The notes under the pieces are model-generated. The model ran no database searches. It was not told the origin of the DNA and saw nothing but the letters and a program-made list of their open reading frames with translations. This document shows positions 38,193-64,000 of a DNA stretch of 64,000 nt, one piece after another. The stretch covers positions 864,001 to 928,000 of the forward strand of contig CAVTJJ010000004.1 of NCBI GenBank assembly GCA_963735035.1. Direction: 5' to 3'. Every line of letters begins with the position of its first letter. The stretch's first letter is position 1. The position numbers and the translations under genes are program-made. Source of the DNA: an uncultured candidate division Zixibacteria bacterium (GTDB lineage Bacteria; Zixibacteria; MSB-5A5; GN15; FEB-12).

Positions 38193-40346
38193 ATGAACCT
38201 AAGAATCGGCCACAAATTTCTCTGGATCCTCTTGATTGCCACGGTGGCGGTCGCCTCCGGGTGCAGCGTATACTTCAACACGTTCTTCAATGCCAAGAAG
38301 GCGTTCAATGCCGCGGAGAAAGCCCGCAAAGCCAGTGCGCGGCAGGAAGCCGGACAAAACGACTATCAGAAGGCGATTGAAAAAGCGCTCAAGGTTGTCG
38401 AAAACCATCCCAACTCTAAATATTACGACGATGCCGTCTACGTGCTGGGAGTGTCGTACTTTCATACCAAGCAGTACGGCAAGGCGGAACGACGTTTCCG
38501 CGAACTACTGGCCAACTTCCCCGATTCGAAGTACACGAAAGATGCCAATCTATACCTGGCCAAATCGAAACTCGCGCTGGGAGATATGGACGAAGCCCTG
38601 GCGACTTTCGCCCAGATATTCGAATCAAACTCTACGAAGGAATTCAAGGCCGAGGCGGCGCTGGCCCTCGGGGCGCACCATCAGGAGCTTAAGGAATACG
38701 ATCAGGCCAGGCGTTATTTCCAGGCTCTGCGCGACTCGCTGGGGGATCCGTTGACCGCCCGTAATGCGCAAATGATGATTGCCGACGGGTATTTCGAGTC
38801 GTTCAAGTTCTTTGACGCCCGGGGCGCTTACCTTCAGGCCATCGGCATGAACCCGGACAAGAAAGAAAAGTATCATGCCCTTTTCTACTCGGCCCTGTGT
38901 TCATTTCGGCTTCAGGCTATCGATGTCGGACTTGGGTATCTCGACCAGCTTGCCGGCGACGAATTGTACTTCGACTCTCTGGGCGTGCTGAAATTGACCA
39001 AGGCCGAAGGGTACGAATACGACGACGACTTGCTGTCGGCGGAGGCGATGTACGAGGATGTCGCTACCACGAGCGAGGACAAGTCCCTGCAGGCCCGCGC
39101 CCTTTATCGACTCGGTTTGATCTACCAAATTGACTACAATGATCTCAAGAAAGCCAAAGAATATTACGACAAGTCAGTCGAGGTGGACCGGAATTCACCG
39201 GTGCGCAGCGATGCCATCATGCGTTCGTCCGATATCGGCAAAATTGAATCTTTCACTCGTACGACGCTGGATTCTACTGCCACACCCGCCGCGATCGATG
39301 AGGCGGCGTATGCCCAGTACCTACTGGCTGAACTCTTCTGGCAGAAATTGAATCAACCCGACTCGGCCATAGCCGAAATGCGATATCTGGTGGATTCATT
39401 CTCAACGTCCTATTATGCGCCGCAGGCCCTGGTGGCCCTGGCTCAGATGACTCGCGACAAGACCGGCGATAACAACGTTCCCGATAGCCTATTGAGGGCT
39501 ATGCTTCAGAAGTATCCCCATTCGGATTTCGTGCCCGACGCCCTCGAGGCGCTTGGTCTGAAAGGAACCGCCGCCGATACCGGATACGCGGCGCTGTGGA
39601 TCAATCGCGCGGAGAATTATCTGATCGACAACAAGAACGCCGATTCAGCGATGGCCTGCTACCAGTACGTGGTAGACAACTACCCGGACTCAAGATACAA
39701 CGTATCATCCCGCTTCGCGTTCATCTGGCTCAAAGACAATTATCGAGCCCCCGGCGACTCAAGCATCTACTACGAATACAAGCAATTTGTCGATTCATTC
39801 CCCGGCAACGAATGGGCCGCTCTGGCTCAGAGACAAATTTCGGTGAAGGGAGAGGCGCCGCCGGTAGCAGTGGCTGTCCCGGAGGGACAAGTCGAGGGAG
39901 AGGGGACGATTGACGAGCGCGAGGCTGCACGAGACAGCACGCGGGGGCCGGATGTGCCCGACACCGCCCAGACCTACATCGATCCGATGGTGGCGCTCTA
40001 CCGCCGGGGCAACGACACCCTGGTCGAGTTGCGCCTTCAACCCATTGAGACGCAGGCAATCTTCGAGTTCCCCCAGGAGGCGGCCATCGGTTCCCAGCAC
40101 GATTGGAAGCTGTATTTCCAATTGCTCATTGATTTCTCGGGCAAAGTAGTGGATTATTCGCTGAAGATTCCGTCGGGTATCGAGGAACTCGACAAGCGGG
40201 TCAGCGAGACGGTGGCTTCGATGACTTTTGACGCCATGGAAGTATCAAACCGGGTTGTCGATGCTGGGCAGACGGAAAAGAAGACCGAAGAAGGATACTG
40301 GTTTGTCTATATGTATGCCGTGACGAAACCGGAATACCTGCGATGA
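38193..40346 (+). CDS. TPR-repeat lipoprotein with TonB-C-like C-terminal domain
   Basis: Lipobox VASGC, YFNTFFNAKKAF, many TPR units; C-terminal FEFPQEA...LLIDFSGKVVDYSLKIPSGIEELDKRV. Confidence 0.8.
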   Translation: MNLRIGHKFLWILLIATVAVASGCSVYFNTFFNAKKAFNAAEKARKASARQEAGQNDYQKAIEKALKVVENHPNSKYYDDAVYVLGVSYFHTKQYGKAERRFRELLANFPDSKYTKDANLYLAKSKLALGDMDEALATFAQIFESNSTKEFKAEAALALGAHHQELKEYDQARRYFQALRDSLGDPLTARNAQMMIADGYFESFKFFDARGAYLQAIGMNPDKKEKYHALFYSALCSFRLQAIDVGLGYLDQLAGDELYFDSLGVLKLTKAEGYEYDDDLLSAEAMYEDVATTSEDKSLQARALYRLGLIYQIDYNDLKKAKEYYDKSVEVDRNSPVRSDAIMRSSDIGKIESFTRTTLDSTATPAAIDEAAYAQYLLAELFWQKLNQPDSAIAEMRYLVDSFSTSYYAPQALVALAQMTRDKTGDNNVPDSLLRAMLQKYPHSDFVPDALEALGLKGTAADTGYAALWINRAENYLIDNKNADSAMACYQYVVDNYPDSRYNVSSRFAFIWLKDNYRAPGDSSIYYEYKQFVDSFPGNEWAALAQRQISVKGEAPPVAVAVPEGQVEGEGTIDEREAARDSTRGPDVPDTAQTYIDPMVALYRRGNDTLVELRLQPIETQAIFEFPQEAAIGSQHDWKLYFQLLIDFSGKVVDYSLKIPSGIEELDKRVSETVASMTFDAMEVSNRVVDAGQTEKKTEEGYWFVYMYAVTKPEYLR

Positions 40347-41137
40347 AGAAATACGATTCCACGGTTGTTGAAATTCTCCGGCTGCGTCATCTGTCTCGCG
40401 ACTATTATTCTCTTAAGCTTGGTCCCTGGGATCGCTCGGCCAAGTGTCAGCCCGGGCAGTTTATCCACGTGCGGCTGTCAGGTACTGAAGTTTATCTACG
40501 CCGGGCCATGTCGATAGCCGCCGTCGATCCTGATTCAGGCGAAATAGAAATCATATTCAAAGTCTTCGGTCGGGGTACCCGGCTTCTCTCACAATGTCAT
40601 TCGGGCGACAAACTGGATGTGCTAGGACCTCTTGGTGTGCCGTTCAGTATGCCACGCAAGAACGACACCTGCATAATGGTCGGGGGTGGGGTCGGTTTCC
40701 CACCGCTATATTTTCTGGCTACTCGTCTAGTGGCCGATGGCCGTGACCCGAAGTCCATAGAGTTCTTTTACGGTGGTCGCACCGATGGTGAGATAGTCGA
40801 GCGACCCCGAATACGTCGCCTGGGCGTGCGTTTTCACCCGGTTACGGACGACGGTACCTTTGGCGCCAAAGGTCTTGTGACCGAGGTGGTTGACGATTTC
40901 CTAAAATCCGGCAAGGTGAAGAATCCCCGCATTTATGCCTGTGGACCCGAGGCGATGTTGAAAGCGACCGACGAACTGGCTCTACGCCACGGGGTCCCCG
41001 GCCAGGTATCGCTCGAAGCGCCTATGCCGTGTGGTTACGGCGTCTGTCTTGGCTGCGTGGTACCGCTCAGGGCTGGAGGCCACGCCCGTGTGTGTAGAGA
41101 AGGTCCCGTATTTGAGATTGGGGAGGTGCTGTTGTGA
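40343..41137 (+). CDS. pyrK: Dihydroorotate dehydrogenase electron transfer subunit
   Basis: PGQF, GPLG, GGGVG, ACGP, MPCGYGVCLGC...VCREGPVF. Confidence 0.95.
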   Translation: MKKYDSTVVEILRLRHLSRDYYSLKLGPWDRSAKCQPGQFIHVRLSGTEVYLRRAMSIAAVDPDSGEIEIIFKVFGRGTRLLSQCHSGDKLDVLGPLGVPFSMPRKNDTCIMVGGGVGFPPLYFLATRLVADGRDPKSIEFFYGGRTDGEIVERPRIRRLGVRFHPVTDDGTFGAKGLVTEVVDDFLKSGKVKNPRIYACGPEAMLKATDELALRHGVPGQVSLEAPMPCGYGVCLGCVVPLRAGGHARVCREGPVFEIGEVLL

Positions 41138-42051
41138 AACCCGATCTCTCGGTCACGATCGCCGGGATAACATTTGCCAACCCGATCATGACCGCCTCGG
41201 GCTGTTGCGGCTACGGCGAAGAACTGGCCGAGGTGTTTCCGCTTTCTCGTCTGGGCGCTCTGGTTACTAAGTCAGTGACGCTCAATCCCCGGCTTGGCCA
41301 CCCACCGCCACGCACCGCCGAAACCGCTTCGGGCATGCTCAACGCCATCGGTCTGGCCAATGTCGGTATAGACAAATTCATTTCCGACAAACTGCCGTTT
41401 CTCGAAAAGCAGAAGACCCGGGTGATTGTCAATGTCGCCGGTTCCTCGGCGTCGGAATATATCGAAGTTTGCAGCCGCCTTAACGATTGCCCCCGGGTGG
41501 ACATGATCGAGTTGAACATCTCCTGTCCGAATGTCAGCGAAGGTGGCATCGAGATTGGCACGAATCCGGCAATGACCGAACGGATAATGGCCGATGTCCG
41601 CAAAGTGTTCAGTCGCCCGATTATCGCCAAACTGACACCCAACGTCACCGACATCACGGCAATCGCCAAAGCCGCCGAGGCGGGCGGGGCCGATGCTTTG
41701 TCGCTCATCAACACGTTGATTGGCACTTCGATCGATATCCACACCTGGCGCCCCCGACTTACCAATAATCGCGGGGGATTGTCCGGCCCGGCGATTAAAC
41801 CGGTGGCGCTGGCCATGGTGGATCGCGTATATAATTGCACCAGGCTCCCGCTGATCGGCATCGGCGGAATATCCAGCGCTGCCGACGTGGTGGAGTTCAT
41901 GCTCGTGGGAGCGACGGCGGTACAGATCGGTACGGCGCTGTTCGTTCAGCCCGACGCCCCGGTCAGAATCGCCGAAGATCTTAAGGCTTACTTGAGCCAG
42001 AAGAAATTGACTTCGGTAAGCGAACTGGTTGGCAAAGTTAGGAAGTACTAA
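41134..42051 (+). CDS. pyrD: Dihydroorotate dehydrogenase (family 1B)
   Basis: NPIMTASG, MLNAIGL, ELNISCPN, KLTPN, GGLSGPAIKPVAL. Confidence 0.97.
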   Translation: MKPDLSVTIAGITFANPIMTASGCCGYGEELAEVFPLSRLGALVTKSVTLNPRLGHPPPRTAETASGMLNAIGLANVGIDKFISDKLPFLEKQKTRVIVNVAGSSASEYIEVCSRLNDCPRVDMIELNISCPNVSEGGIEIGTNPAMTERIMADVRKVFSRPIIAKLTPNVTDITAIAKAAEAGGADALSLINTLIGTSIDIHTWRPRLTNNRGGLSGPAIKPVALAMVDRVYNCTRLPLIGIGGISSAADVVEFMLVGATAVQIGTALFVQPDAPVRIAEDLKAYLSQKKLTSVSELVGKVRKY

Positions 42052-43007
42052 TGATTGCACTTGAGAAATTACTGAAAGCCCAGCAGACTAGCCATTCCTA
42101 CGTCTGTCTGGGACTCGACCTCGATCCTAAGAAGATGCCGCAGGAATTCGGCGGCACCGTACGCGGGATGTTCGATTTCACGCGCCGCATCATAGAGGCC
42201 ACGGCCGATCAGGTTTGTGCTTACAAACCGAACCTGGCGTTCTTCGAGAGCCTCGGACCCGAGGGCTGGTCGCTCCTGTCACAAGTGTTGCAGCGGATTC
42301 CCGAACGGGTACCGATCATCCTTGACGGCAAGCGCAACGATATCGGCAATACGGCGACACAGTATGCGTCGGCTTTATACGACCGCTACGGTGCCGACTG
42401 GGTTACGATCAACCCCTACATGGGGTACGATTCCATGAAACCGTTCATGGATCGTCGCGACAAAGGCGTATTTGTCCTCTGTCTGACTTCGAACGCCGGA
42501 GCGCGGGATTTCCAGATGCTCGAAGTCGAGGGGCGCCCTCTTTACCAGGTCGTTGCCGACCGTGTGAAATACTGGAATAAAGATGGCAACTGCGGTTTAG
42601 TCGTCGGTGCCACTCATATCGAACAATTGAAAGAGGTTCGCGAAATCGCCGGAGAGATGCCGCTTCTGATACCCGGCGTTGGGGCGCAGGGAGGATCGCT
42701 CGAAGATTCGATTACGGTCGGAACGGACGCTTTCCGCAAACCGGCGGTGATCAATGTTTCCCGTTCGGTTCTGTACGCCTCCAGCGCGGCTGATTTCGAT
42801 CAACGCGCCCGTCAGGAAGTAGTCCGCCTGAATGCTACCGTGACCCGGCTTCGATACGGTGACAAGTCATCGGAATCGAAAGGCGAGGTCTCGGCAGCAC
42901 CTCCGCCAGCGCCGGTGACTTCGCAGGAGAACCAAAACGGTGGGAATGGAACGGCCGAACCCGCCCGACCGCCCGAGGTTATACGACCGTTGCCGGTTGA
43001 CGATTGA
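42051..43007 (+). CDS. pyrF: Orotidine-5'-phosphate decarboxylase with low-complexity C-terminal tail
   Basis: CLGLD, YKPNLAFFE, LDGKRNDIGNT, LVVGAT, LIPGVGAQGG. Confidence 0.96.
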   Translation: MIALEKLLKAQQTSHSYVCLGLDLDPKKMPQEFGGTVRGMFDFTRRIIEATADQVCAYKPNLAFFESLGPEGWSLLSQVLQRIPERVPIILDGKRNDIGNTATQYASALYDRYGADWVTINPYMGYDSMKPFMDRRDKGVFVLCLTSNAGARDFQMLEVEGRPLYQVVADRVKYWNKDGNCGLVVGATHIEQLKEVREIAGEMPLLIPGVGAQGGSLEDSITVGTDAFRKPAVINVSRSVLYASSAADFDQRARQEVVRLNATVTRLRYGDKSSESKGEVSAAPPPAPVTSQENQNGGNGTAEPARPPEVIRPLPVDD

Positions 43008-44170: not shown

Positions 44171-47100
44171 ATGATTGCCCGGGAGACTTGGTGTCGCCTT
44201 GCGACATTTTATGTCACTTTGTGTCTGGCCGCGACAGTGCTTAGTGCAGCCGTCTTGGCGGCAGACAATTCTATTCCCCCCGAACGCGTTACCCAATTCA
44301 ATCTCAATCCCGCCCTTGGCCTGAATAGGTCGGAGGTCGCCGATTCGGACCGCGGTGTGGTGTCGACAGGGGCATCCGGTAGTCGCCGCCCGGTTGGCTC
44401 GGCGGTTTCGACCGACGCCGGTATCGGGAAAGGGGAGAGTGTCGATCTGACCTGGGACGACGCCCAGTACACTACTGGTCACGGCCGCCACATTAGCCAC
44501 TGGTGGAATGGCCAGTATGGCATTGACGCTGCGGTGAGTGTTCACTTTGCCTATCGTGATTTGATCGACTCAACCGCCAGTAACCGGATCTATTACTCCG
44601 GCTACAACGCATACGATGCCTTGAACGGAGTCTGGCCCAGGGGGGTGGAAACAGGCTGTGATCTTCAGGATTCGGATCCCCTCGGTTGGGGCGACATCCC
44701 GAGCCTGGACATCATGCCCAATGGACGGGCGGTGATGGCCGGTATGTCGGCGCTTTATCGTACCATGCCCGGTGGCGGCAGCTTGTACGATAACATGGTT
44801 TTCTATCAGGGAAGCGAATTCGGCTGCACCTACGATCCGCGCACCAATCTCAACGTTACCTGGATTGACAGCAGCGTTTATCGCCCCAGGTTCATGGTGA
44901 GGTCCGACGGGACTTATTCGCGCACCCCTCAGGTAGTTAGCCAGTGGGATGGTACCAATACGATTGTCCATCTGCTCCTGGGAGAAGAATCCCCCGGCAC
45001 GATGCTGAACGGCGACGCCTATGTTTCTGGTCTTCCGTACTATTCATTTGTCTATTTCCGTAAGGTTGGTGAAACATCTGGTAGCGGCACGTGGAGCGCG
45101 GGTCAGATCATCGATTCGCTCTGGTTCTCCTGGGCATCCATGGCGGCCGCGCCTTACCCCTACACCGGTGTGGCGATTACGTATACTAATCCAAGCTACT
45201 ATGGGGCTCTCTTAGAGAACGAACACGATCTGGACGTCTGGTGCCGGGAGTCGTTCGATCGCGGCATCTCGTGGGCCAGTGCCTACAGTGTGACCAATTA
45301 CGCGAACGCTATCGCCGGGGATCCGAAACACTTCACGGCCTGGCTGGAAACGCAGGCAATGTTCACCACTGATGGAAAGCTCAACGTGGTTTGGACCGCC
45401 AAGCCGACTTTCGAAGATCCCTATTTCGACGGCTTCAACTGGACCGACTACGATGAGAACATCTACCACTGGGAAAAGACCAACGGCAGCGGTGTGCCGG
45501 GTGTCGGCGACGTAGTCAAGGTGGCCAACGGTAATTTCAACGACGGGGGCGACTACATCACGGGGAGTTTCAATACTCTCCACTGCGGTTTCGGCGGCAG
45601 TAACGCCGGGTATATCGCCAACATCAATCTCGCCGAGTGCGACGGCAAGCTCTATTGTGTTTGGAATCAGATTCATGAACGAGCTAATAACGCCGATTGG
45701 CGCCGCGCCGGCACTCAGCCGATGCCGGGTGTGCTGGACGACTGCTCTTATACCGGCAACCGTCAGGCGATGGCCAACTGGGAGATCATGATGTCGGTGA
45801 AGTCTCTGACCGACGGGACATTCTGGGACAACGCCCGCAATATCACTAATACCTATACTCCTAACTGTGGGGTGGCCGGTGATCCGCTGGCTCAGGGCGT
45901 CTGTGGCAGCGAATACAAGCCGACGGTTGAGAAATACGGTCTGGATGAGACCGGCCTGTCGCTCAACTGGCCTGCGGCGACCACGGTCGACCCCACGGCC
46001 GACTGGGAAACGCCCTATGCCGGATCATGGTACCTGAACCTGCAGTATCTCGACGATCAGTTCCCCGGACCGGCGTACTGGGGTCGTACGAACCCGCCGG
46101 CCACGCTCAATTCGATCAAGTGGATTCGCCTCGCCTGTGTGGAGCCGGTCTACGCGCCGCAAATTTCCTTGGTCCCGACAAGCGTCGACTGGCCGTTGTG
46201 GGTGCAACTCGGTAATAGCCGCAATTTTGCCGTGACCGTAGTTAACGACGGAAACCTTGCCCTCAATGTCACCGAAATCGGGTTTGATGACAACGGCGGG
46301 GGCTGGCTGGGTGCATCGGTAGCTACCCTGACGGTCCCGGCCGGGGTCGGCAATACCCGAACGTTTAATATTGTAGTCAACGCCGGCGCTCTGGCCACGA
46401 CTCAGTGGCTCGACGGTTCAGTCTGGTTGAAATCTGACGCGGTAAACAACGATTCGCTGTCCATCCCGATTCATATTCTGGCCGCCGCCGATGTCGAGTC
46501 CGTGGCGTGGGATACGGTTATGTCGCATCAGTATATGTTCGATCAGTTCTTTGAGCCGGTGGGCGAGTGCGTGGCACTTGCAGTCTCCAACTATGGTGAG
46601 ATGGGATGGCAGGGGCGCGGCTCGGTAAATCTGGACTATCGCGAGTCGGGTGAGGAGTGCGGCGCCCGTGACGCCGACGCAATCTATCTCAAGTCCGGCT
46701 CACCGTTCGCAATCCTGGCGACCAGCTCGACGGGAGTGGGCGCCGAGCTGACCTGCTCCTATATGGATCCGAACCAGGCCGACCCGAACGGTTGGGATCC
46801 GACTCCGGCCAACGGGGGGATCAGAAGCGGGACCTATGCCAATCGATATGATTCGGTGTACACGGGAAAATTTGTCAACCGTGACACAACTATCGCTATG
46901 GAACAGGTCTTCTATGCCCCGCGGTCGAGTACACCGGCGACTTCGACTATCAATTTCGTGATCTGCAACACCTGGTTCTATTCGGCTGACGGGCTCCCGC
47001 ATAATCATTTGACGGTCGGCAATGTGATCGACTGGAATGTGCCGTCGGACAGCGCATCGAGCAACACGGCGGGAGTATCCAGCGCTGGATTCGTCTATGC

Positions 47101-47847
47101 AAAAGGTACAGATACACTGGGTCATGACGGTTGCCAGTCGAATACCAATCGATATGCGACCGAGGCCTTCGGAGGCGGTGCTACAAAGTCAGAAACTAAT
47201 GCAAATCCATGTTCCAACGACCCCAACGACTACTACAGCATCAATGCCTTCGACCAGCATATAATGTCCGACACGACCCATTATCGCAACGGCACCGATC
47301 TGGTCCCGGATCAGCCCAACCCGCAGGTCTGGTGGGATGAGGTGAAAGTGCCCGGTTCAATTCTAATCCGGAAGCAAAGGATCAGGCAGTGTGGCTGACC
47401 TATAAACATGATTACGATCTTTCGGCGACGGACACGCTGTACTGCTGGACAGTGATGACAACGGTCCGTAACGGCTCTTTGGCCGATCTTGAAGCCCAGG
47501 TAGCTTACGCTAAGAGTTGGTTTATGACCAGTGTGAACCCCTGTTGTGCCGATGATGGTTGTTGCATGGAAAAGGTCGGCAACGCGAATGGACTAGGGGG
47601 AGAGGTTCCGACTATTGGCGATATCTCGGTTATGATTGACGCCAAGTTTGTTGCGGGGACCTGCATTCTTTACGGTTCGGGATGTAACATCGTGTGTCTG
47701 GAGGAAGCCGATATGAACCTCTCTGGTGGAGCCAATGCAACGTGTGATGACATCACTATCGGCGATATCAGTATGCTGATAGACTGTCTGTTCATAACCG
47801 GTGAGCCGCCGTATGTTCGAAACAACTGTGCGATTGGCTGTCGGTAG
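44171..47847 (+). CDS. Large secreted protein with Ig/BACON-like and C-terminal dockerin-like modules; one frameshift at ~47356
   Basis: Signal peptide; VTVVNDGNLALNVTEI...WLGAS Ig-like module; adding one base gives VPGFNSNPEAKDQAVWLTYKH; duplicated GNAN..PTIGDISVMID / ADMN..ITIGDISMLID. Confidence 0.78.
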
Positions 47848-52009: not shown

Positions 52010-53455
52010 ATGAATGGTCAGAAGCTGAATCTTGGTTATGTCATTCTAATAGTGACCCTGGCCGTCTGCCAGACAAGTGTGGACGGTCAGGACCTTGACT
52101 CGCTTATGCAGGCGATTGATAAGATCGGGGCCAATCTCGAAGTGGTGGGTGTCAATAGAGTCGCACCACCCCAGGGACCACGCCACCCAGGTATCGAGAA
52201 CAACCAATCACTTCGATCCACCCCAGGCGATCTCGACACTTCAAAGTGCACACAAATAGAGCGAGAGTTGCAGGCTCTCTGGGCCGAAGTGGCTGAACTG
52301 CGTATCACACTGAATACGCTCAAACAGAAATCTAACAATCCGACCACGGCGCAAAACGACGTGGTCGTTTTGTTTGAACAACTGACCATCCTTCAGGCCG
52401 AACTGGAATTGCTGCGTCAGGGACATCAAGAATCAGCTCAACTCGCTTCAACCGAACCAATCACCGCGCTGGTGCCTGAGTCGCCCGCCGAGGAGACTTC
52501 CAAGAGACTTGAAATCAGCGGCTTCTTTGATGTAGTCGGGTCGTCTCACCGTGTCGACGGGGACGAAGCGCCTTTCCGATTGGGACAGGCCGAGATCGAT
52601 CTGGCTAATCAGGTGTCGAACCGAATCGCTGTTGAAGCTGCGGTGGCCTATAATAATGAGGCCGGGACTTTCGAATTGGGTGCAGCGTTTATTGACTTCC
52701 ATCTGCTCAGCCGCGACAAAGCCGAGCGACACACCCACACGGCCCTTGACATTGATCACTCATACATTTTGGCGGGACAGTTTGATGTACCGTTTGGCGT
52801 AGACTATCACACCTACGCTTCGATTGACCGCAAGCTGGTGACCGCTCCGGCGGTAGTAGAATTGACTCACGGCGGCTGGAGTGACGTTGGGATCCAGCTC
52901 GGGCTGGAAACTCCCCACGCCAATCTCGTAGGATACTGGGTCAACGGCTTTGAATCTTCGGCCGAGATACTCGACGAAGTCCAGACTCTGGCTACCGGAG
53001 TCGAAGTCTACGAAGAAATCAACACGACACCGGCCAACGCCCTCGGTATGCGTCTGGGTTTGAAGCCTCTCGACTGGATGGAACTGGGCGGTTCATTCGC
53101 CGCCGGTTGGAACGCGTCGGAGAAGAATGAAATGACTTTGGCAGGGCTTGACCTGCAATTGACTTATGACAAGCTCGAAGTCAAGAGCGCGTTGATCGGA
53201 CATTCGATGAATCGAACCATCGCCGAAGAAAACAATCGGGGATTTTATCTGCAAGCGCTCTACAATATCTTTGATCGGGCCTTTGTAGTGGGGCGATATG
53301 GTTCGTTCAAGCCGGATCGTAAAGAGTGGAGTGACGAGGGATCAATCGGCGCCGGGTATTCTCTGGCTGATTGTCTCGAGGTGCGCTGGGAGGCCAGCGT
53401 CAATGAAGCACTGACCGGGACTCGGAACTTCATTCAGGCGGTGGCAGCTTTCTAA
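52010..53455 (+). CDS. Outer-membrane porin-like beta-barrel with N-terminal coiled coil
   Basis: Signal peptide, coiled-coil stalk, LEISGFFDV barrel start, AGQFDVPFG, GFYLQALY, C-terminal Phe (FIQAVAAF). Confidence 0.85.
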   Translation: MNGQKLNLGYVILIVTLAVCQTSVDGQDLDSLMQAIDKIGANLEVVGVNRVAPPQGPRHPGIENNQSLRSTPGDLDTSKCTQIERELQALWAEVAELRITLNTLKQKSNNPTTAQNDVVVLFEQLTILQAELELLRQGHQESAQLASTEPITALVPESPAEETSKRLEISGFFDVVGSSHRVDGDEAPFRLGQAEIDLANQVSNRIAVEAAVAYNNEAGTFELGAAFIDFHLLSRDKAERHTHTALDIDHSYILAGQFDVPFGVDYHTYASIDRKLVTAPAVVELTHGGWSDVGIQLGLETPHANLVGYWVNGFESSAEILDEVQTLATGVEVYEEINTTPANALGMRLGLKPLDWMELGGSFAAGWNASEKNEMTLAGLDLQLTYDKLEVKSALIGHSMNRTIAEENNRGFYLQALYNIFDRAFVVGRYGSFKPDRKEWSDEGSIGAGYSLADCLEVRWEASVNEALTGTRNFIQAVAAF

Positions 53456-53540
53456 AGGACAGGTGAATCCGCAGAAACGTAGTTGAATACGATAATTTGA
53501 GCCAGTAGATTCAAAACCATATTCATTGGGGGGAGCGTCA

Positions 53541-56500
53541 ATGAGTATTAGAAGACTCAAACTGACGAAAAGAGTCGGCGCGGTAGTGGGTGTGTTTTTG
53601 TTCTCACTCGCACTGCACGCATCGTCCGGTCCGCCGAAGGCGAGTCCGGATCAGGCCCTATCGCAACTCAAGAAGGGGAACCAGCGGTTTGCATCCGGGG
53701 GCATGACCTACCCGCATCTAGGTAAGGACAGGCTGGCCGCGGTGGCCGAGGGTCAGCAGCCCTGGGCAACTGTTGTCAGTTGCTCGGATTCACGAGTCCC
53801 GGTCGAAGAAATCTTCGACGCCGGACTGGGTGATATCTTCGTGGTGCGGGTCGCGGGCAACGTCTGCGACGTGGACGAAGTCGGCTCGGTCGAATACGGA
53901 GCGGAGCATCTCGGTACTCCCGTGCTCGTTGTCCTGGGCCACACGGCGTGCGGCGCTGTGACGGCGGTGGCGACCGACGCCGTAGTCCACGGCTCGATTT
54001 CGCCGCTCATTGACAACATCAAGCCGGCGGTGCAAAAAGCTGCAAAGGATAATCCGGGGCTAAGCGGCAAAGACCTGGTCACGGCCGCGGTAACAGCCAA
54101 TGTCTGGCAGTCCATTCAGGATCTGTTAACTGCCTCTCCAATTGTTCGTGAATTGGTGAAAGAGGGAAAGCTCAAGATTCAGGGCGCTATCTATCATCTG
54201 GATGATGGCAAAGTCGAGTGGCTGGGCGCGCATCCTCGCGAGGCATTTCTGACAGCGTCAACAGGCGGAGGGCATCCCAAAGTATCTTCAACTTTTTATC
54301 AGACGGCTACGCTGCATGTCCCTGATGTTTCAGAGGCCCGTCATGCCGAAGGCATCGACAAGAACAAGGCCATGCAGTTGCTCAAGAGCGGCAACTCCCG
54401 CTATGTCGATGGATCTCGCACTTATCAGCATCAGGACAAGTTGCGCCTTCGCGAGGTGACTACCGCGCAGCATCCGTACGCGACCGTGGTGTCATGTTCG
54501 GATTCGCGGGTGCCGGTAGAACATATCTTCGACGCAGGTCTGGGCGACATATTCACCGTCCGAGTGGCAGGAAATGTCTGTGATGTGGACGAGATCGGCT
54601 CGATCGAATACGGCATCGGGCATCTGTTTACGCCGATGCTTGTCATAATGGGCCATAGCGCGTGCGGCGCCGTGACGGCGGTAGCCACCGACGCCGAGGT
54701 AAGCGGATCGATTCCGGCGCTGGTGGACAATATTGTCCCAGCCGTCGCGATGGCCCGTAAAGAGCATCCATACCTGACTGCGAAAGACCTGGTACCGGAA
54801 GCAATCAAAGCGAACGTCATGACCTCAATGGCGGATCTGTTCGCTCATAGCCCGGAAGCCTGTGCTATGGTTCAGAGCGGGTTTCTCAACGTAGTTGGGG
54901 CCGTATATGATTTGGAGACGGGCAAGGTTGAATGGCTGGGGCCGCATCCAAATCAAACCGATATGGTCAGCACTCTCTTGGCAGTGGCCGGAGAATCAGG
55001 CCATGGCGCCTCTTCTGAGGCCGCTGGCGAAGCCGGGGAGTCTCACTCCGGTGCAGAGAAGAGTTCACTCAGCGCTGAGACTGGTCACGGCTCGGTTTCA
55101 AGTGGCGGTATGGCAAGCGGCCACGAAAAGTCGGCTGCCTCGATGGCGTCAGTCGCCGGCGAAGAACAATCCGGCGCCACTGTCCAGAGAACACTCTGGG
55201 ACGAATGGTGGTTCTGGGCGCTCATCCTGAGTGCTTTCATATCGATAATAATTTGGATGTTCAAGAAGATAGAAAAGGGGGAATTTGCTATGAAGATGAA
55301 TGTAGGAGCCAAGATTCTCACGGGCTTTGGGGTGGTGCTGGCTATTCTCGCCCTCACCATTACTGTTGCTACATGGAAGATGGGACAGATCGGGGATTCA
55401 CTGAAGGAAGTAGCCGAAGAGTATATCCCGCTCACCGAGAAGATTTCTGCCATTGAAATTTCCGCCGTAGAGCAGGGAATGGCTTTCGCCTCTTTCCGGG
55501 CCGACAGCGACCAGAAATGGCTGGCTATGTTTGAAAAAGACAACGAGCTCGTGGCGGAAGAACTGAAGGGAGCTGAAGAAATAGTCAACGCTAACAAGGT
55601 GTTGCTGGAATCAGGCATGATGGAAACGCTGAAGAAACTGGAAGCCGAGCACGAGGGGTTCTACGCCGATGCCGAGAAACTCATAGGAGAATTGAAGGCG
55701 GGAACGCAGGGTGAGCAAGTGGAGGAGCTTTCAAATCAAGCCGAAGAGGAAATGGCCACACTCCAGGAAGCCACAGATGTCTTCCTAACACAAGTGGAAC
55801 ACAGTCTGGATTCGGTCAGTGCACTGGCTGAGGAAAATGAAAAGGCAGGATTCCAGTTGATAGTGGTCCTGGGAATACTGGGGGTAATCGCGGGTTTGAC
55901 GATCGGCTGGATGATTGCCCGAAGCATCTCGCGCCCGGTCACTCAGATGGCCAATATTGCCCAGCAGATCTCGCAGGGTGACATCGATCACAACATCGAA
56001 GTGCATTCCAAGGATGAGATTGGCATGCTGGCCAATTCCTTCAAGGAGCTGATCATCTACATGAAAACCATGGCCGGAGCGGCCGAGAAGATCGCCAACA
56101 GCGACTTGACGGTCAAAGTGGAGCCGAGATCGGAAGCTGACGTGCTCGGCAAGTCATTCAAGAGCATGACAATCAATCTGTCCGACATGATCCGTCAGTT
56201 GACCGACGGCGCCGGACAGTTGGTGTCGGCGGCGAACGAGGTGGCCTCCTCTTCGGAGCAGATGTCACGCGGCGCCAAGGACCAGACCGACCAGATGGCC
56301 CAGGTATCAACGGCGGTGGAAGAGATGACCGCAACTATCGTAGAGACTTCCAAGAACGCCGGGGAAGCTACCACGGGCTCTCATCGTGCTGCTGAAACGG
56401 CCGGTACCGGCGGGCAAATAGTCAACGATACGATTCAGGGGATGCAGAAGATCGCCGCGGTGGTTCGGGAATCGGCGGAATCAATCAGCAAGCTGGCCAA

Positions 56501-57047
56501 GTCGGCAGACCAGATCGGTGAGATCATCGGTGTAATCGACGATATCGCCGACCAGACCAACCTGCTGGCTTTGAACGCTGCTATCGAAGCGGCTCGGGCC
56601 GGAGAACAGGGACGCGGTTTCGCAGTGGTAGCCGACGAAGTCCGCAAGCTGGCCGAACGCACCGGCAAGGCGACCGGTGAGATTACGAATATGATCAAAG
56701 GTATCCAGCAGGAGACCAACGACGCTGTCAAGTCGATGGAGTCCGGCATTGTGCAAGTCGATAAGGGCCGGGAGCTGGCTGACAAGGCCGGTACCAGCCT
56801 CAATGAGATTGTGACTATGGCCCAGCAGGTGCAGGACATGATTCAGCAGATCGCGACGGCTTCGGAAGAGCAGTCTTCGGCGGCTGAGCAGATTTCCAAG
56901 AACGTGGAAAACGTGACGGCAATCGCTCGCGAATCTGCCACCGGTGCGCAGCAGTCGGCGGCGGCGGCGGAAGAGTTGAACCGCCAGGCCGAGGCTATGC
57001 GTCAGATGGTGGCGAAGTTCAAGCTCAGTCAGGAAGCTCGCGTCTGA
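53541..57047 (+). CDS. Fusion of tandem beta-carbonic anhydrase domains and a methyl-accepting chemotaxis protein
   Basis: Two copies of [12 protein letters not shown] / VRVAGN / GH(T/S)ACGAV; three TM segments; HAMP (ISRPV...[10 protein letters not shown]); MCP signature [38 protein letters not shown]. Confidence 0.93.
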
Positions 57048-62884: not shown

Positions 62885-64000
62885 ATGCGACGATGGCTAA
62901 CCAACCTGATTGTCACGCTCGCGATTTCAGCAGCGTCTTGCCCAATCGTTCTGGGCGAACAAGCCACCGAATTTGAAATGGAAAATGTCGCCCGCAACTG
63001 GGTGACTGAAATGACCCTCAGGACAAGCAACTGGGCCGGAGAAACAACGCCCGTCTTGGGCGGTGTTCACGAAATCAGTCAGGACGGTACTCTCCTGGCC
63101 CGTTACTACGATGTGTCCCCGCGCGGTTACGTGGTTGTACCGGTTCTGAAAGAAATTAATCCGGTCATGCTCTATTCAGATGAGTCCAATCTCGACGCCT
63201 CGCAGGAAGGCGGCATGCTTCAGCTAATCAGAGACGTGCTGACCGAAAGAATGGAGCTGTTCCGTCAGGCCTTCGGCGATTTGAACGCGGTGCAGCCTGC
63301 TATCGGTGATGTGCCCTTTGATCGCAGCCAGAGGGCCCGCTGGGATCGACTGGCGGTAACGGCCAGGGAATTCCGTCCGGACCAGTCGCAGGCAGTGCTG
63401 GCCGAGGGGGGACCGCTGATTACCTCGAGCTGGCATCAGCGCGCCCCTTACAACAATGACTGCCCAATGGGCGACGGGGCGCGCAGCGTGGTGGGCTGCA
63501 CGGCCACCTCGCTTTCGCAGATACTGGACTTTTGGGAATGGCCTTCGAACGGAATCGGCAGCCACTCGTACGACTGGGGTGGCGACAACTGCAATGGAGG
63601 CTCGGTTCCCGGCCAGACTCTAAGTGCTGATTTCTCGGATAGCTACGATTGGGCCAATATTCCCGACAGTTGCGACGGAACCGTGCCATGTACGGCGGCG
63701 CAGGAAGCTGCCCTGGCGGAACTTTGCCATGAGGCTGGTGTGGCGGTCAACATGAATTACGGGGCCTGTGCGTCGGCCGCCGGTATGGACATGACCGTAT
63801 TCCCGACCTACTTCAAGTACAGCCCTTCAGTTACCAGAGAATTTCGAACCAGCCACACCCAACAGAGCTGGTTCGACATCATCCGGTCGGAAATCGATTC
63901 CGGTCGGGTTATGTGGTACCATATCAACTCCCATGCCATAGTCTGCGACGGTTATCGGGACAATGGCGGACAGCTCGAGTATCATATGAATTACGGCTGG
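62885..64000 (+). CDS. C10-family (streptopain-like) cysteine peptidase with Spi-like prodomain, partial (absent from the ORF track)
   Basis: Manual translation after RBS AGGAG: MRRWLTNLIVTLAISAASCPIVLG...GYVVVP...PVMLYS...PLITSSWHQRAPYNNDCP...VVGCTATSLSQIL...HAIVCDGY...YHMNYGW. Confidence 0.9.
   Translation, partial: MRRWLTNLIVTLAISAASCPIVLGEQATEFEMENVARNWVTEMTLRTSNWAGETTPVLGGVHEISQDGTLLARYYDVSPRGYVVVPVLKEINPVMLYSDESNLDASQEGGMLQLIRDVLTERMELFRQAFGDLNAVQPAIGDVPFDRSQRARWDRLAVTAREFRPDQSQAVLAEGGPLITSSWHQRAPYNNDCPMGDGARSVVGCTATSLSQILDFWEWPSNGIGSHSYDWGGDNCNGGSVPGQTLSADFSDSYDWANIPDSCDGTVPCTAAQEAALAELCHEAGVAVNMNYGACASAAGMDMTVFPTYFKYSPSVTREFRTSHTQQSWFDIIRSEIDSGRVMWYHINSHAIVCDGYRDNGGQLEYHMNYGW

Follow-up and report, generated by a model that had tools for sequence, protein, structure and literature searches.

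Chemoreceptors of the Tar/Tsr type (4HB_MCP_1/TarH + HAMP + MCPsignal) run from a first transmembrane helix (TM1) through a helical sensor, a second transmembrane helix (TM2) and a HAMP domain to a signalling hairpin with a conserved tip. The protein described here has the same layout and adds to it a signal peptide, two enzyme domains, a linker and an extra transmembrane helix (TM0), which should leave it with three membrane passes after cleavage. Its sensor also differs from theirs, in falling below the 4HB_MCP_1 cut-off (17.1 bits against 27) and in being unusually acidic (net charge -24). The added enzyme domains are beta-class carbonic anhydrases (CAs) that agree in sequence, Zn site, Asp-Arg dyad and fold with Rv3588c (1ym3, 2a5v) and with the Porphyridium purpureum enzyme (1ddz). 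The latter has two CA repeats per chain, and a two-fold pair is likewise predicted by modelling for the protein analysed here. Rv3588c and 1ddz are soluble and free-standing; this CA, in contrast, is predicted to be exported and is covalently tethered to a receptor.

In the literature searched, 'CO2 chemotaxis' leads to nematodes and bacterial 'bicarbonate chemotaxis' to TlpA of H. pylori. TlpA resembles the present protein in that it is a chemoreceptor of a bacterium and has a link to bicarbonate and acid, but it has a dCache sensor, not homologous to ours, and no enzyme domain, and the abstract on it mentions no coupling to a CA. Examples of CA-coupled sensing in eukaryotes are olfactory GC-D/CAII and sour-cell Car4. 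In eukaryotic CO2 sensing, bicarbonate-regulated cyclases work with carbonic anhydrase (PMC3085406), and the logic is the one proposed below, the CA quickly making HCO3- and H+ from CO2 for a downstream receptor. The proteins are unrelated, however, and enzyme and receptor are separate, whereas here they form one polypeptide or, in related loci, a porin-enzyme fusion beside a receptor gene. No description of a CA-chemoreceptor fusion was found in the largely open-access literature searched. The initial annotation had not recognised the architecture from characterised systems, and to that extent it was right; in sequence databases, on the other hand, the architecture is common, not rare.

The gene and its reading frame

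The window (a stretch of 64,000 nucleotides from an uncultured Zixibacteria bacterium) contains an open frame without internal stop that runs from a TTG at 53526 to 57047. (This and all other features referred to lie on the + strand.) The ATG at 53541, which yields a gene of 1168 codons plus stop (53541..57047), is the likelier start because a Shine-Dalgarno-like sequence, GGGGGGAG (53528..53535), sits 5 nt upstream of it. Encoded in order are a signal peptide, two beta-CA domains, a His-rich linker, TM0, a basic loop, TM1, an acidic helical sensor, TM2, HAMP and MCPsignal. The initial annotation had claimed both a single uninterrupted frame and this order of parts; the ORF listing and translation confirm the first and Pfam, hydropathy and sequence the second. 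It had also raised the prospect of a stop or frameshift between the CA and MCP parts in close relatives. Instead, an unbroken layout is shared by 101 of the 120 closest relatives in the database; one of these, P0002, has the same order of parts and is 53% identical over 99% of the protein length. The gene is therefore most unlikely to be a product of chance or of assembly.

Two carbonic anhydrase domains

Pfam Pro_CA (PF00484) matches two stretches of the protein (256.5 bits against a cut-off of 25.7), corresponding to CA domain 1 (residues ~33-228; 53637..54224) and CA domain 2 (residues ~269-466; 54345..54938), and NCBIfam NF011765, 'carbonic anhydrase family protein', is passed with 289.7 bits (cut-off 221). 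The Zn ligands are C81, H134 and C137 in domain 1 and C319, H372 and C375 in domain 2 (also invariant in alignment A3); the Asp-Arg dyads, in the CxDxR motif, are D83/R85 and D321/R323. All ten of these residues are invariant across nine aligned tandem relatives (alignment A1), and at least one CxDSR motif occurs in 117, at least one GHxxCG motif in 119, of the 120 best relatives. The claim that both domains keep their Zn ligands and dyad thus holds in the sequence and in the nine-relative alignment, and from these residues both domains are predicted to be catalytically intact.

The nearest solved relative is Rv3588c of M. tuberculosis: its structure 1ym3 is matched at E 1.2e-35 over residues 27-225, and 2a5v_B was aligned by VIA to model residues 240-442 (Z 26.5, rmsd 1.5 A). 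The model in question, an AlphaFold prediction for residues 28-500 (pLDDT 90.5, pTM 0.90), is superposed over both domains by 1ddz, the Porphyridium tandem beta-CA (VIA Z 31.4, rmsd 3.1 A, 358 residues). The predicted arrangement is a single intrachain pseudo-dimer, and the proposal of a beta-CA dimer within one chain is upheld at the level of the model. The CA part is acidic (net charge -15, pI 5.5; family median pI 5.4), and the notion of a basic CA docking electrostatically on the acidic sensor was rejected on that account. In a FastTree tree, read for its topology only, CA domains 1 and 2 of the window protein cluster with domains 1 and 2 of porin-fused proteins, and in other lineages the two domains are each other's closest relatives; tandems appear from this to have arisen more than once.

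Membrane topology

Residues 1-27 (53541..53621) are a predicted signal peptide with a basic n-region, a hydrophobic core (hydropathy peak at 12-30) and a cleavage site between LHA and SS. Hydropathy places N-terminal hydrophobic segments at the same position in relatives. (The 'RR' at residues 4-5 was considered as a Tat signal and rejected, since it is absent from the close relatives P0002 and P0003.) The CA domains are followed by a linker rich in Ser, Gly, Ala, Glu and His (residues ~481-555; 54981..55205), which sequence and model suggest to be flexible, pLDDT being below 50 from model residue 462 onward; it contains 5 His, and the linkers of relatives a median of 6. Hydropathy then identifies TM0 (residues 556-574; 55206..55262), the extra helix that would return the chain to the cytoplasm, TM1 (592-610; 55314..55370) and TM2 (774-792; 55860..55916); a fifth hydrophobic peak, at residues 126-144, falls within CA domain 1. 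The short cytoplasmic loop between TM0 and TM1 (residues 575-591; 55263..55313) has charges of +5/-2 and retains the look of an MCP N-terminus (MKMNVGAK).

This is not the canonical two-TM topology of class I chemoreceptors, since a signal peptide, ~550 periplasmic residues and TM0 precede TM1. Of the 101 relatives of the same architecture, 100 have a net positive charge in the loop that joins TM0 to TM1. A positive loop together with an N-terminal signal peptide should put the CA domains on the periplasmic side of the membrane, next to the sensor, as had been argued from the presence of TM0.

Sensor, signalling domain and the chemotaxis pathway of the host

The predicted periplasmic helical sensor (residues 611-773; 55371..55859; motif EEYIPLTE) gives the sub-threshold match to 4HB_MCP_1 (PF12729) already referred to, at residues 585-746; its relatives score 22-27 bits to that family or match TarH. 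Homologues of the sensor number 336 at E<=1e-3 among 1.84 billion representatives. Its net charge of -24 (pI 4.2) compares with a family median of -20 and with -2 to -9 for the sensors of six other MCPs of the same genome. HAMP (residues 792-837; 55914..56051; 70.4 bits against 25 in Pfam) leads to the MCP signalling domain (residues 947-1128; 56379..56924; MCPsignal, PF00015, 180.3 bits against 34.6), the conserved hairpin tip of which, residues 1005-1031, is invariant or nearly so in alignment A1. The protein sequence also shows Glu/Gln pairs of the kind usual at methylation sites.

The genome is 97% complete, in 6 contigs, and encodes three CheW (one frame being of CheA length), three flagellins, CheR and CheB; judged by gene content, signals from the receptor can be relayed to the flagella through the one CheA/CheW/CheR/CheB pathway that the cell has. 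The window gene contributes the only beta-CA domains found in this 97%-complete genome, in which no alpha-CA was found either. As the only alpha- or beta-class CA found there, it does not simply duplicate a housekeeping enzyme.

A predicted upstream porin and the gene neighbourhood

Directly before the receptor gene lies a predicted outer-membrane porin gene (52010..53455; 481 aa) with a signal peptide, two long periplasmic helices and a beta-barrel ending in AAF. It has no direct Pfam match, Porin_O_P (PF07396) included, but its 107 relatives are annotated as PF21620, PF13609 (Porin_4) or PF07396, and its structural model (pLDDT 74) matches OmpU, Omp32, OprP, OprO and DcaP about equally well (E 1e-10 to 1e-12). 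The significance of this porin emerges from loci in which a homologue of it is fused to the CA. Nine of the 120 best relatives of the window protein have the CA module joined to a porin, and CA(-CA)-Porin_O_P fusions are also present in five loci of the same phylum (G049, G051, G063, G155 and G187). BLASTP detected no significant similarity between the upstream porin and two CA-porin fusions, but a profile comparison (hhalign) with the porin portions of CA-CA-Porin_O_P fusions gave a probability of 98.1% (E 8e-14, 386 columns); by this comparison the porin is a homologue of the coiled coil and barrel in those fusions, which pass PF07396.

An MCP gene directly follows the fusion in all five of the same-phylum loci examined. 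The fusions therefore share with our locus the CA module, a homologous porin and an adjacent MCP, but have the CA on the outer-membrane partner, and their MCPs have HBM/4HB sensors of ~240 aa with ordinary charge. Since these sensors carry net charges of -2 to -7, not every module of this kind has an acidic one. Generation of the products next to the receptor, as the initial annotation had proposed, is probably not essential either, since sister genera attach their CA to the porin. Homologues of the upstream porin directly precede MCP genes in four further genomes (G021, G023, G024 and G025), the last three having porin-MCP pairs without any CA. The gene order is OMP-porin-CA-MCP-CheR in G069 and in G021, where CheA and CheW immediately precede this series, and OMP-CA-MCP-CheW in G034.

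Distribution, and recruitment of a second class of carbonic anhydrase

The combination of Pro_CA and MCPsignal in one protein, which the initial annotation had suggested looking for, is annotated by Pfam in 105 of the 120 best database relatives. TM0 makes its hairpin in 101 of the 120, each of which has the full layout; the CA domain occurs once in 81 of these proteins, twice in 18 and three times in 2. Their named sources include Zixibacteria, Planctomycetota, Marinimicrobia, Caldithrix and Desulfopila aestuarii DSM 18488; stated as bacterial groups, the module is found in Zixibacteria, Planctomycetota, Marinimicrobia, Caldithrix and relatives of Desulfobacterota and Verrucomicrobia. The continuous CA-MCP layout also occurs in the genomes G021, G034 and G069. 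A profile scan of genome contigs with the CA alignment gave 80 loci, mostly single exported CAs; only four (L015, L028, L029 and L032) have CA and MCP in one frame. Within the phylum, this type of CA is present in 29 of 201 sampled genomes and fused to receptor modules in only four, three with the signalling domain (G000, G021, G069) and one in which the contig ends after HAMP domains (G089). The CA module also occurs free, as in G018, an exported tandem CA of 512 aa. Neither same-genus genome has a tandem CA match. (The best match in the same genus, G002, was considered as a CA-less orthologue starting at residue 585 and rejected, because its sensor is a different one and it is a paralogue.) The distribution of the fusion across the phylum is thus patchy, and this counts against the functional reading given below.

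A search with the sensor alone retrieved proteins that combine MCPsignal with an alpha-class CA (PF00194). Both domains are present in 55 of the 120 relatives listed for one such protein, and of 43 alpha-CA-MCPs picked by motif, 42 have the linker-TM0-basic loop-TM1-sensor-TM2 layout. Alpha- and beta-CAs are unrelated folds that share only the reaction they catalyse; on sequence evidence they appear to have been recruited independently to homologous receptors, a case of convergence.

What might the receptor sense?

Without a catalyst, CO2 hydration takes tens of seconds. On balance we consider it probable that porin, periplasmic CA and chemoreceptor constitute one module for CO2, bicarbonate or pH taxis in which the CA acts catalytically. 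A Sec-type signal peptide and TM0 would hold the tandem beta-CA in the periplasm, and ~90 disordered, His-rich residues would tether the pseudo-dimer to an otherwise ordinary TM1-sensor-TM2-HAMP-MCP receptor. The porin would pass charged species (HCO3-, buffers) across the outer membrane; the CA, acting as an enzyme and not as a ligand-binding domain, would equilibrate periplasmic CO2, HCO3- and H+ within the roughly one-second window of chemotaxis; and the helical sensor would read one of its products, turning a gradient of CO2 or inorganic carbon into a swimming signal. The alpha-CA fusions and the porin/CA/MCP module favour the enzyme-coupled sensing that the initial annotation had proposed, but fall short of proof. 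There are also considerations on the other side: in water already at CO2/HCO3- equilibrium the CA would change nothing, and no RuBisCO, acetyl-CoA synthase (CdhC) or SulP transporter was found in the genome, which gives no obvious reason for taxis towards inorganic carbon. With a floppy tether of 90 residues and variants anchored to a porin, moreover, local generation of product offers no obvious advantage over any periplasmic CA.

As to which species is read, a sensor with a net charge of -24 is poorly suited to bind the bicarbonate anion, and the acidic sensor and His-rich tether make us lean towards H+/pH as the stimulus. A more elaborate version is, as a whole, improbable: an envelope-spanning bacterial CO2 'nose' that reads the proton. 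Its porin would admit or vent charged species and its tethered CA, of either class, would convert CO2; the conserved His-rich tether would be a titratable polycation engaging the polyanionic sensor as pH shifts, so that the chemoreceptor would take its input from an electrostatic switch within the molecule, driven by the enzyme, and not from a bound small ligand. An internal start at Met584, described below, could supply CA-less subunits that tune sensitivity.

Because alpha- and beta-CAs were seemingly recruited independently, the CA is found on either partner of the porin-receptor pair and several bacterial groups are involved, the sequences suggest a design under selection, of ecological relevance in sediments, groundwater and soils. 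The family is a testable candidate for CO2-gradient navigation by free-living bacteria, with a receptor that carries its own signal-converting enzyme, and chemoreceptors with enzyme domains as their input modules would process stimuli in a new way. It also offers a defined system for asking which species (H+, HCO3- or CO2) a bacterial receptor reads, with at least one cultured carrier, D. aestuarii DSM 18488 (P0038).

Other readings

Catalysis might instead serve envelope metabolism (inorganic-carbon uptake or control of periplasmic pH), the fusion being only an anchor and the receptor sensing something unrelated. That the CA module can equally be attached to an outer-membrane porin or left free (G018), that it is the only alpha/beta CA found in this genome and that porin-MCP pairs can lack a CA altogether all fit such an arrangement. 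We nevertheless regard it as unlikely: one TM helix or a lipid anchor would be enough for mooring, an MCP gene still follows the CA-porin fusion in five of five loci, homologous receptors have recruited two CA classes and relatives are located within che gene clusters.

Rv3588c has a pH-dependent switch. It has been crystallised in two forms, one titled 'tetrameric form' (1ym3, 2a5v), and this lends some substance to the idea that the CA tandem is itself the sensor, with the binding of CO2 or HCO3-, or else a change of open/closed or oligomer state driven by pH, passed mechanically through TM0 and with catalysis irrelevant. TM0 does offer a physical path into the membrane, but ~90 low-complexity residues, predicted to be disordered, intervene between it and the CA. 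There can also be anything from 1 to 3 CA domains, the slot can be filled by unrelated alpha-CAs and sister genera have the CA on the porin and not on the receptor, so that we judge a mechanical role of this kind distinctly unlikely.

It is very improbable that the domains are COS or CS2 hydrolases and that the receptor reports carbonyl sulfide or carbon disulfide via H2S or CO2. These enzymes do belong to the beta-CA superfamily, and they match (COS hydrolase 3vqj at E 1.9e-6, CS2 hydrolase 3ten at 5.8e-4, 3vrk at VIA Z 16.0), but genuine CAs are far closer (E 1.2e-35 for 1ym3; VIA Z 26.5 for 2a5v and 31.4 for 1ddz), and the NF011765 cut-off is passed (289.7 bits against 221). Alpha-CAs, among which we know of no CS2 hydrolases, fill the same slot of homologous receptors. 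The mention of COS and CS2 in the initial annotation thus finds little support.

That the long frame is an artefact, either an assembly error or a separate exported and anchored CA followed by an MCP starting at Met584, is scarcely credible: the frame has no stop, the genome is in 6 contigs, and the layout is continuous in the G021, G034 and G069 genomes and in 101 of 120 relatives, which come from a variety of sources and assemblers. On the other side, an SD-like GGGGG and an ATG stand exactly at the normal MCP start position, and the four short contig pieces obtained from the only matching DNA run listed (0.08 of sampled words) leave a gap from 53865 to 55742 that includes the junction; no matching RNA run was found. 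The GGGGG (55277-55281) is followed after 8 nt by the ATG of Met584 (55290-55292; together 55277..55292). Five more distant loci are without such an arrangement, but G034 has GGAGA, 8 nt and an ATG at the equivalent position; Met584 is possibly a vestigial or still-used start of a CA-less receptor.

A chemoreceptor with a tandem carbonic anhydrase

The gene joining a tandem beta-carbonic anhydrase (CA) to a chemoreceptor (MCP) lies in a single uninterrupted frame of the ORF listing (53526..57047, + strand); read from the ATG at 53541, which is preceded at a distance of 5 nt by GGGGGGAG in the sequence, it encodes 1168 residues. In Pfam, Pro_CA scores 256.5 bits (cut-off 25.7) in two stretches, followed by HAMP at residues 792-837 and MCPsignal at 947-1128, with a below-threshold match of 4HB_MCP_1 to residues 585-746; in NCBIfam the enzyme part exceeds the cut-off of 221 bits for NF011765, 'carbonic anhydrase family protein', with 289.7 bits. 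Hydropathy locates the signal-peptide core (residues 12-30) and three membrane helices: TM0 (556-574), the extra helix between CA linker and TM1, followed by TM1 (592-610) and TM2 (774-792). The zinc ligands (Cys/His/Cys; C81/H134/C137 and C319/H372/C375) and the Asp-Arg dyad (D83/R85 and D321/R323) are present in both CA domains, and all ten residues are invariant across the nine aligned tandem relatives. The initial annotation's description of this protein, from ORF and tandem CA through TM0, TM1 and TM2 to HAMP and MCP, is accurate throughout by ORF, Pfam, hydropathy and individual residues.

Proposed sensing through catalysis

Uncatalysed hydration of CO2 takes tens of seconds. The reading that we judge rather likely is a joint one: the periplasmic CA would speed the interconversion of CO2, HCO3- and H+ to the time scale of chemotactic comparison, the sensor (residues 611-773) would read one product of that reaction, and the porin encoded upstream would handle the ionic species. 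That the receptor is instead a mere anchor for a metabolic CA is rather unlikely. Full-text literature searches found no paper on a CA-chemoreceptor fusion: 'CO2 chemotaxis' led to nematode papers and 'bicarbonate chemotaxis' to Helicobacter pylori, in which bicarbonate is reported to be sensed by TlpA (PMC8406319). The fusion makes bacterial CO2 sensing directly testable.

A search with the receptor only (residues 585-800, TM1-sensor-TM2-HAMP) against 1.84 billion representatives gave 336 matches at E<=1e-3. The best 150 of these include 64 plain two-TM MCPs, 7 proteins with beta-CA motifs and four that combine MCPsignal with an alpha-class CA (PF00194, E 1e-37 to 1e-43). When one of these alpha-CA receptors was used as the query, PF00194 and PF00015 occurred together in 55 of the 120 matches listed, with source names that include Desulfobacteraceae, Candidatus Magnetoovum, Sterolibacterium, Spirochaetia and Leptospiraceae. 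Among 43 alpha-CA receptors picked by motif, 42 have the linker-TM0-loop-TM1-sensor-TM2 layout (with a positive TM0-TM1 loop in 41 of the 42), and 34 of the 43 retain an intact HxH zinc motif. The alpha-CA version of the fusion is a convergent recruitment. Alpha and beta CAs have different folds and only their reaction in common, and this provides the strongest comparative argument that what the receptor exploits would be catalysis rather than a binding property specific to beta-CAs. The CA might itself be an allosteric sensor by way of such a property, but an unrelated fold occupies the same position on the receptor, and we consider this improbable.

The enzyme part

Among solved sequences, the closest to the CA part are Rv3588c, a beta-CA of Mycobacterium tuberculosis (E 1.2e-35), and the Porphyridium tandem beta-CA, which matches in two stretches (E 1.5e-28). 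A COS hydrolase (E 1.9e-6) and a CS2 hydrolase (E 5.8e-4) are remote and far weaker matches than either CA, so that COS or CS2 hydrolysis as the function of these domains is highly improbable. Residues 28-500 were modelled with AlphaFold from an alignment of 31 tandem sequences (pLDDT 90.5, pTM 0.90). Single domains of the model fit Rv3588c (VIA Z 26.5, rmsd 1.5 A), and the whole model superposes on the Porphyridium tandem enzyme, both domains included (Z 31.4, rmsd 3.1 A over 358 residues in the model range 32-458; Foldseek E 2.4e-22). The earlier proposal that the tandem forms the beta-CA dimer within one chain is thus supported as a prediction.

In a FastTree phylogeny of 101 CA domains, domains 1 and 2 pair most closely with one another in several lineages, which would point to repeated duplications of the CA domain. 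The two domains encoded in the window cluster with the corresponding domains of P0002 (the closest database relative) and of porin-fused proteins. In a Planctomycetales MAG (L019, CP060262.1, 5902-8518) three exported beta-CAs are encoded head to tail by separate genes and not by one multi-domain gene. P0323 (768 aa), a three-TM MCP, has an N-terminal arm in which a beta-CA's first helix and C-terminal part are still present but its catalytic core is missing; the protein looks like a CA-MCP in decay.

Conservation of the layout

A search of 5.8 billion clustered proteins gave 1337 matches among 8000 scored candidates, the closest covering 99% of the length at 53% identity. Among the best 120 of the 1337, PF00484 and PF00015 occur together in 105 (precomputed Pfam column), the CxDSR motif in 117 and GHxxCG in 119. 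By source name, relatives come from candidate division Zixibacteria, several Planctomycetota, Marinimicrobia and Caldithrix, among others, and one (P0038) from an isolate, Desulfopila aestuarii DSM 18488. The full layout (CA, linker, TM0, short loop, TM1, periplasmic stretch, TM2) was recovered by script in 101 of the 120, with linkers of 46-230 residues and one CA domain in 81, two in 18 and three in 2. The TM0-TM1 loop carries net positive charge in 100 of these 101 and, together with the N-terminal signal peptide, supports a periplasmic location of the CA domains; the placement of the tandem on that side by TM0, as originally suggested, is borne out to this extent. With the same layout conserved over many assemblies, an artefactual fusion is very unlikely. 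The architecture is already present in databases, since automatic annotations name both parts ('methyl-accepting chemotaxis protein/carbonic anhydrase', for example). In genome G089 a CA-CA-...-HAMP frame, 68% identical, is broken off by the contig end.

The porin partner and gene neighbourhood

The upstream porin gene (52010..53455, + strand, 481 aa) has no Pfam match of its own; in the precomputed Pfam column its 107 relatives are assigned to Porin_4, Porin_O_P or PF21620, and those that are named come from Zixibacteria MAGs. Its model (pLDDT 74) consists of two long helices followed by a barrel and matches OmpU/OmpT, Omp32, OprP, OprO and DcaP (E 1e-10 to 1e-12), a spread of matches that singles out no one selectivity. 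CA-CA-Porin_O_P fusions make up 9 of the 120 best CA relatives, and the porin family of the window aligns with their coiled-coil and barrel (profile-profile probability 98.1%, E 8e-14, 386 columns). The same type of CA was found in 29 of 201 genomes sampled from the phylum, in 11 of the 29 in a frame of at least 650 aa. Five fusion loci were fetched, all Pro_CA plus Porin_O_P (two CAs in G049, G051 and G063, one in G155 and G187), and in all five an MCP gene lies directly 3' of the fusion. The order is OMP-porin-CA-MCP-CheR in G021, where CheA and CheW immediately precede the cluster, and in G069; in G034 it is OMP-CA-MCP-CheW. Porin, CA and MCP are a recurrent three-part module, in which the partner that carries the CA differs: in some genera it is the outer-membrane protein, here the inner-membrane one. 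Such fusion of the CA to either partner suggests, by the Rosetta-stone argument, that the three act together.

In G023, G024 and G025 the gene that directly follows a porin homologue encodes an MCP lacking a CA; the fetched flanks of the porin homologue contain no MCP in four more genomes, and one further contig ends early. Porin-MCP gene pairs look like a general feature of the order. The CA-less MCPs (L102 in G023, L103 in G025, L104 in G024) have in common a different acidic sensor with the conserved motif QVQQW.TDISATRG.DG..DGL. No promoter- or terminator-like site was found between the porin and CA-MCP genes, which is weak evidence that they may be co-transcribed.

Upstream of the CA-MCP or its porin, a further gene for an outer-membrane-type protein lies at L099:10933-12375 (G021), L004:3825-5111 (G034) and L118:6872-8410 (G069). 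Its product has 429-513 aa, ends in ...LFKF and is without a Pfam match; identity between the copies of G021 and G034 is 69%. In G205 a tandem CA gene with 64% identity to the CA part in the window is immediately preceded by the gene for a DUF6268 protein (PF19783, E 7e-30; L112:710-1660); the contig ends before a possible receptor part.

Sensor, tether and a possible internal start

The CA-MCP sensor is extremely acidic, with a net charge of -24 and a pI of 4.2; the sensors of six other MCPs in the same genome carry -2 to -9, and the mean for long frames across the genome is -0.9 per 100 residues. Median sensor charge is -20 in beta-CA receptors (pI below 5 in 69 of 101) and -21 in alpha-CA receptors; acidity is weaker in the 64 CA-less sensor relatives (median -15.5), and MCPs adjoining CA-porin fusions have ordinary sensor charges of -2 to -7. 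The tether is rich in histidine, with medians of 6 (beta-CA family) and 5 (alpha-CA family) and up to 24. From the acidic sensor and the titratable tether we lean towards protons as the stimulus. Simple charge docking of the CA on the sensor is unlikely, since the CA part is acidic too (family median pI 5.4). Three-TM relatives with a His-rich arm but no CA domain exist as well: P0312, P0316, P0320 and P0345, all relatives of the sensor, combine a signal peptide and TM0 with an arm of 4.7-6.7% His.

The TM0-TM1 loop resembles an MCP N-terminus. At precisely the point where an MCP on its own would begin, the gene contains a Shine-Dalgarno-like GGGGG, followed after 8 nt by the ATG of Met584 (55290; site 55277-55292). 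The G034 orthologue keeps the arrangement (GGAGA, 8 nt, ATG), which is absent in five distant loci. The site could be either a remnant of the fusion event or a functional internal start, and a CA-less isoform from Met584 is possible.

Cell context

In the genome, which is 97% complete with 3.6 Mb in 6 contigs, CheR and CheB each occur once; there are also CheW-domain genes, among them a frame of CheA length, together with three flagellin matches and eight MCP hairpins. Its sole Pro_CA matches are the two domains of the CA-MCP, and no alpha-CA was found in it. With no RuBisCO large subunit, CdhC or SulP transporter found in this genome, CO2 would more probably serve as a cue than support growth.

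Elsewhere in the window (all + strand), a 1075-aa ORF (44171-47398) and an overlapping 152-aa ORF (47389-47847) have no Pfam match at E<=0.001. An ordinary pyrimidine-synthesis cluster (40343-43007) encodes a dihydroorotate dehydrogenase electron-transfer subunit, DHO_dh and OMP decarboxylase, and an ORF that runs past the window end (62885-64000) carries Peptidase_C10 (streptopain-like cysteine protease, E 1.4e-43).
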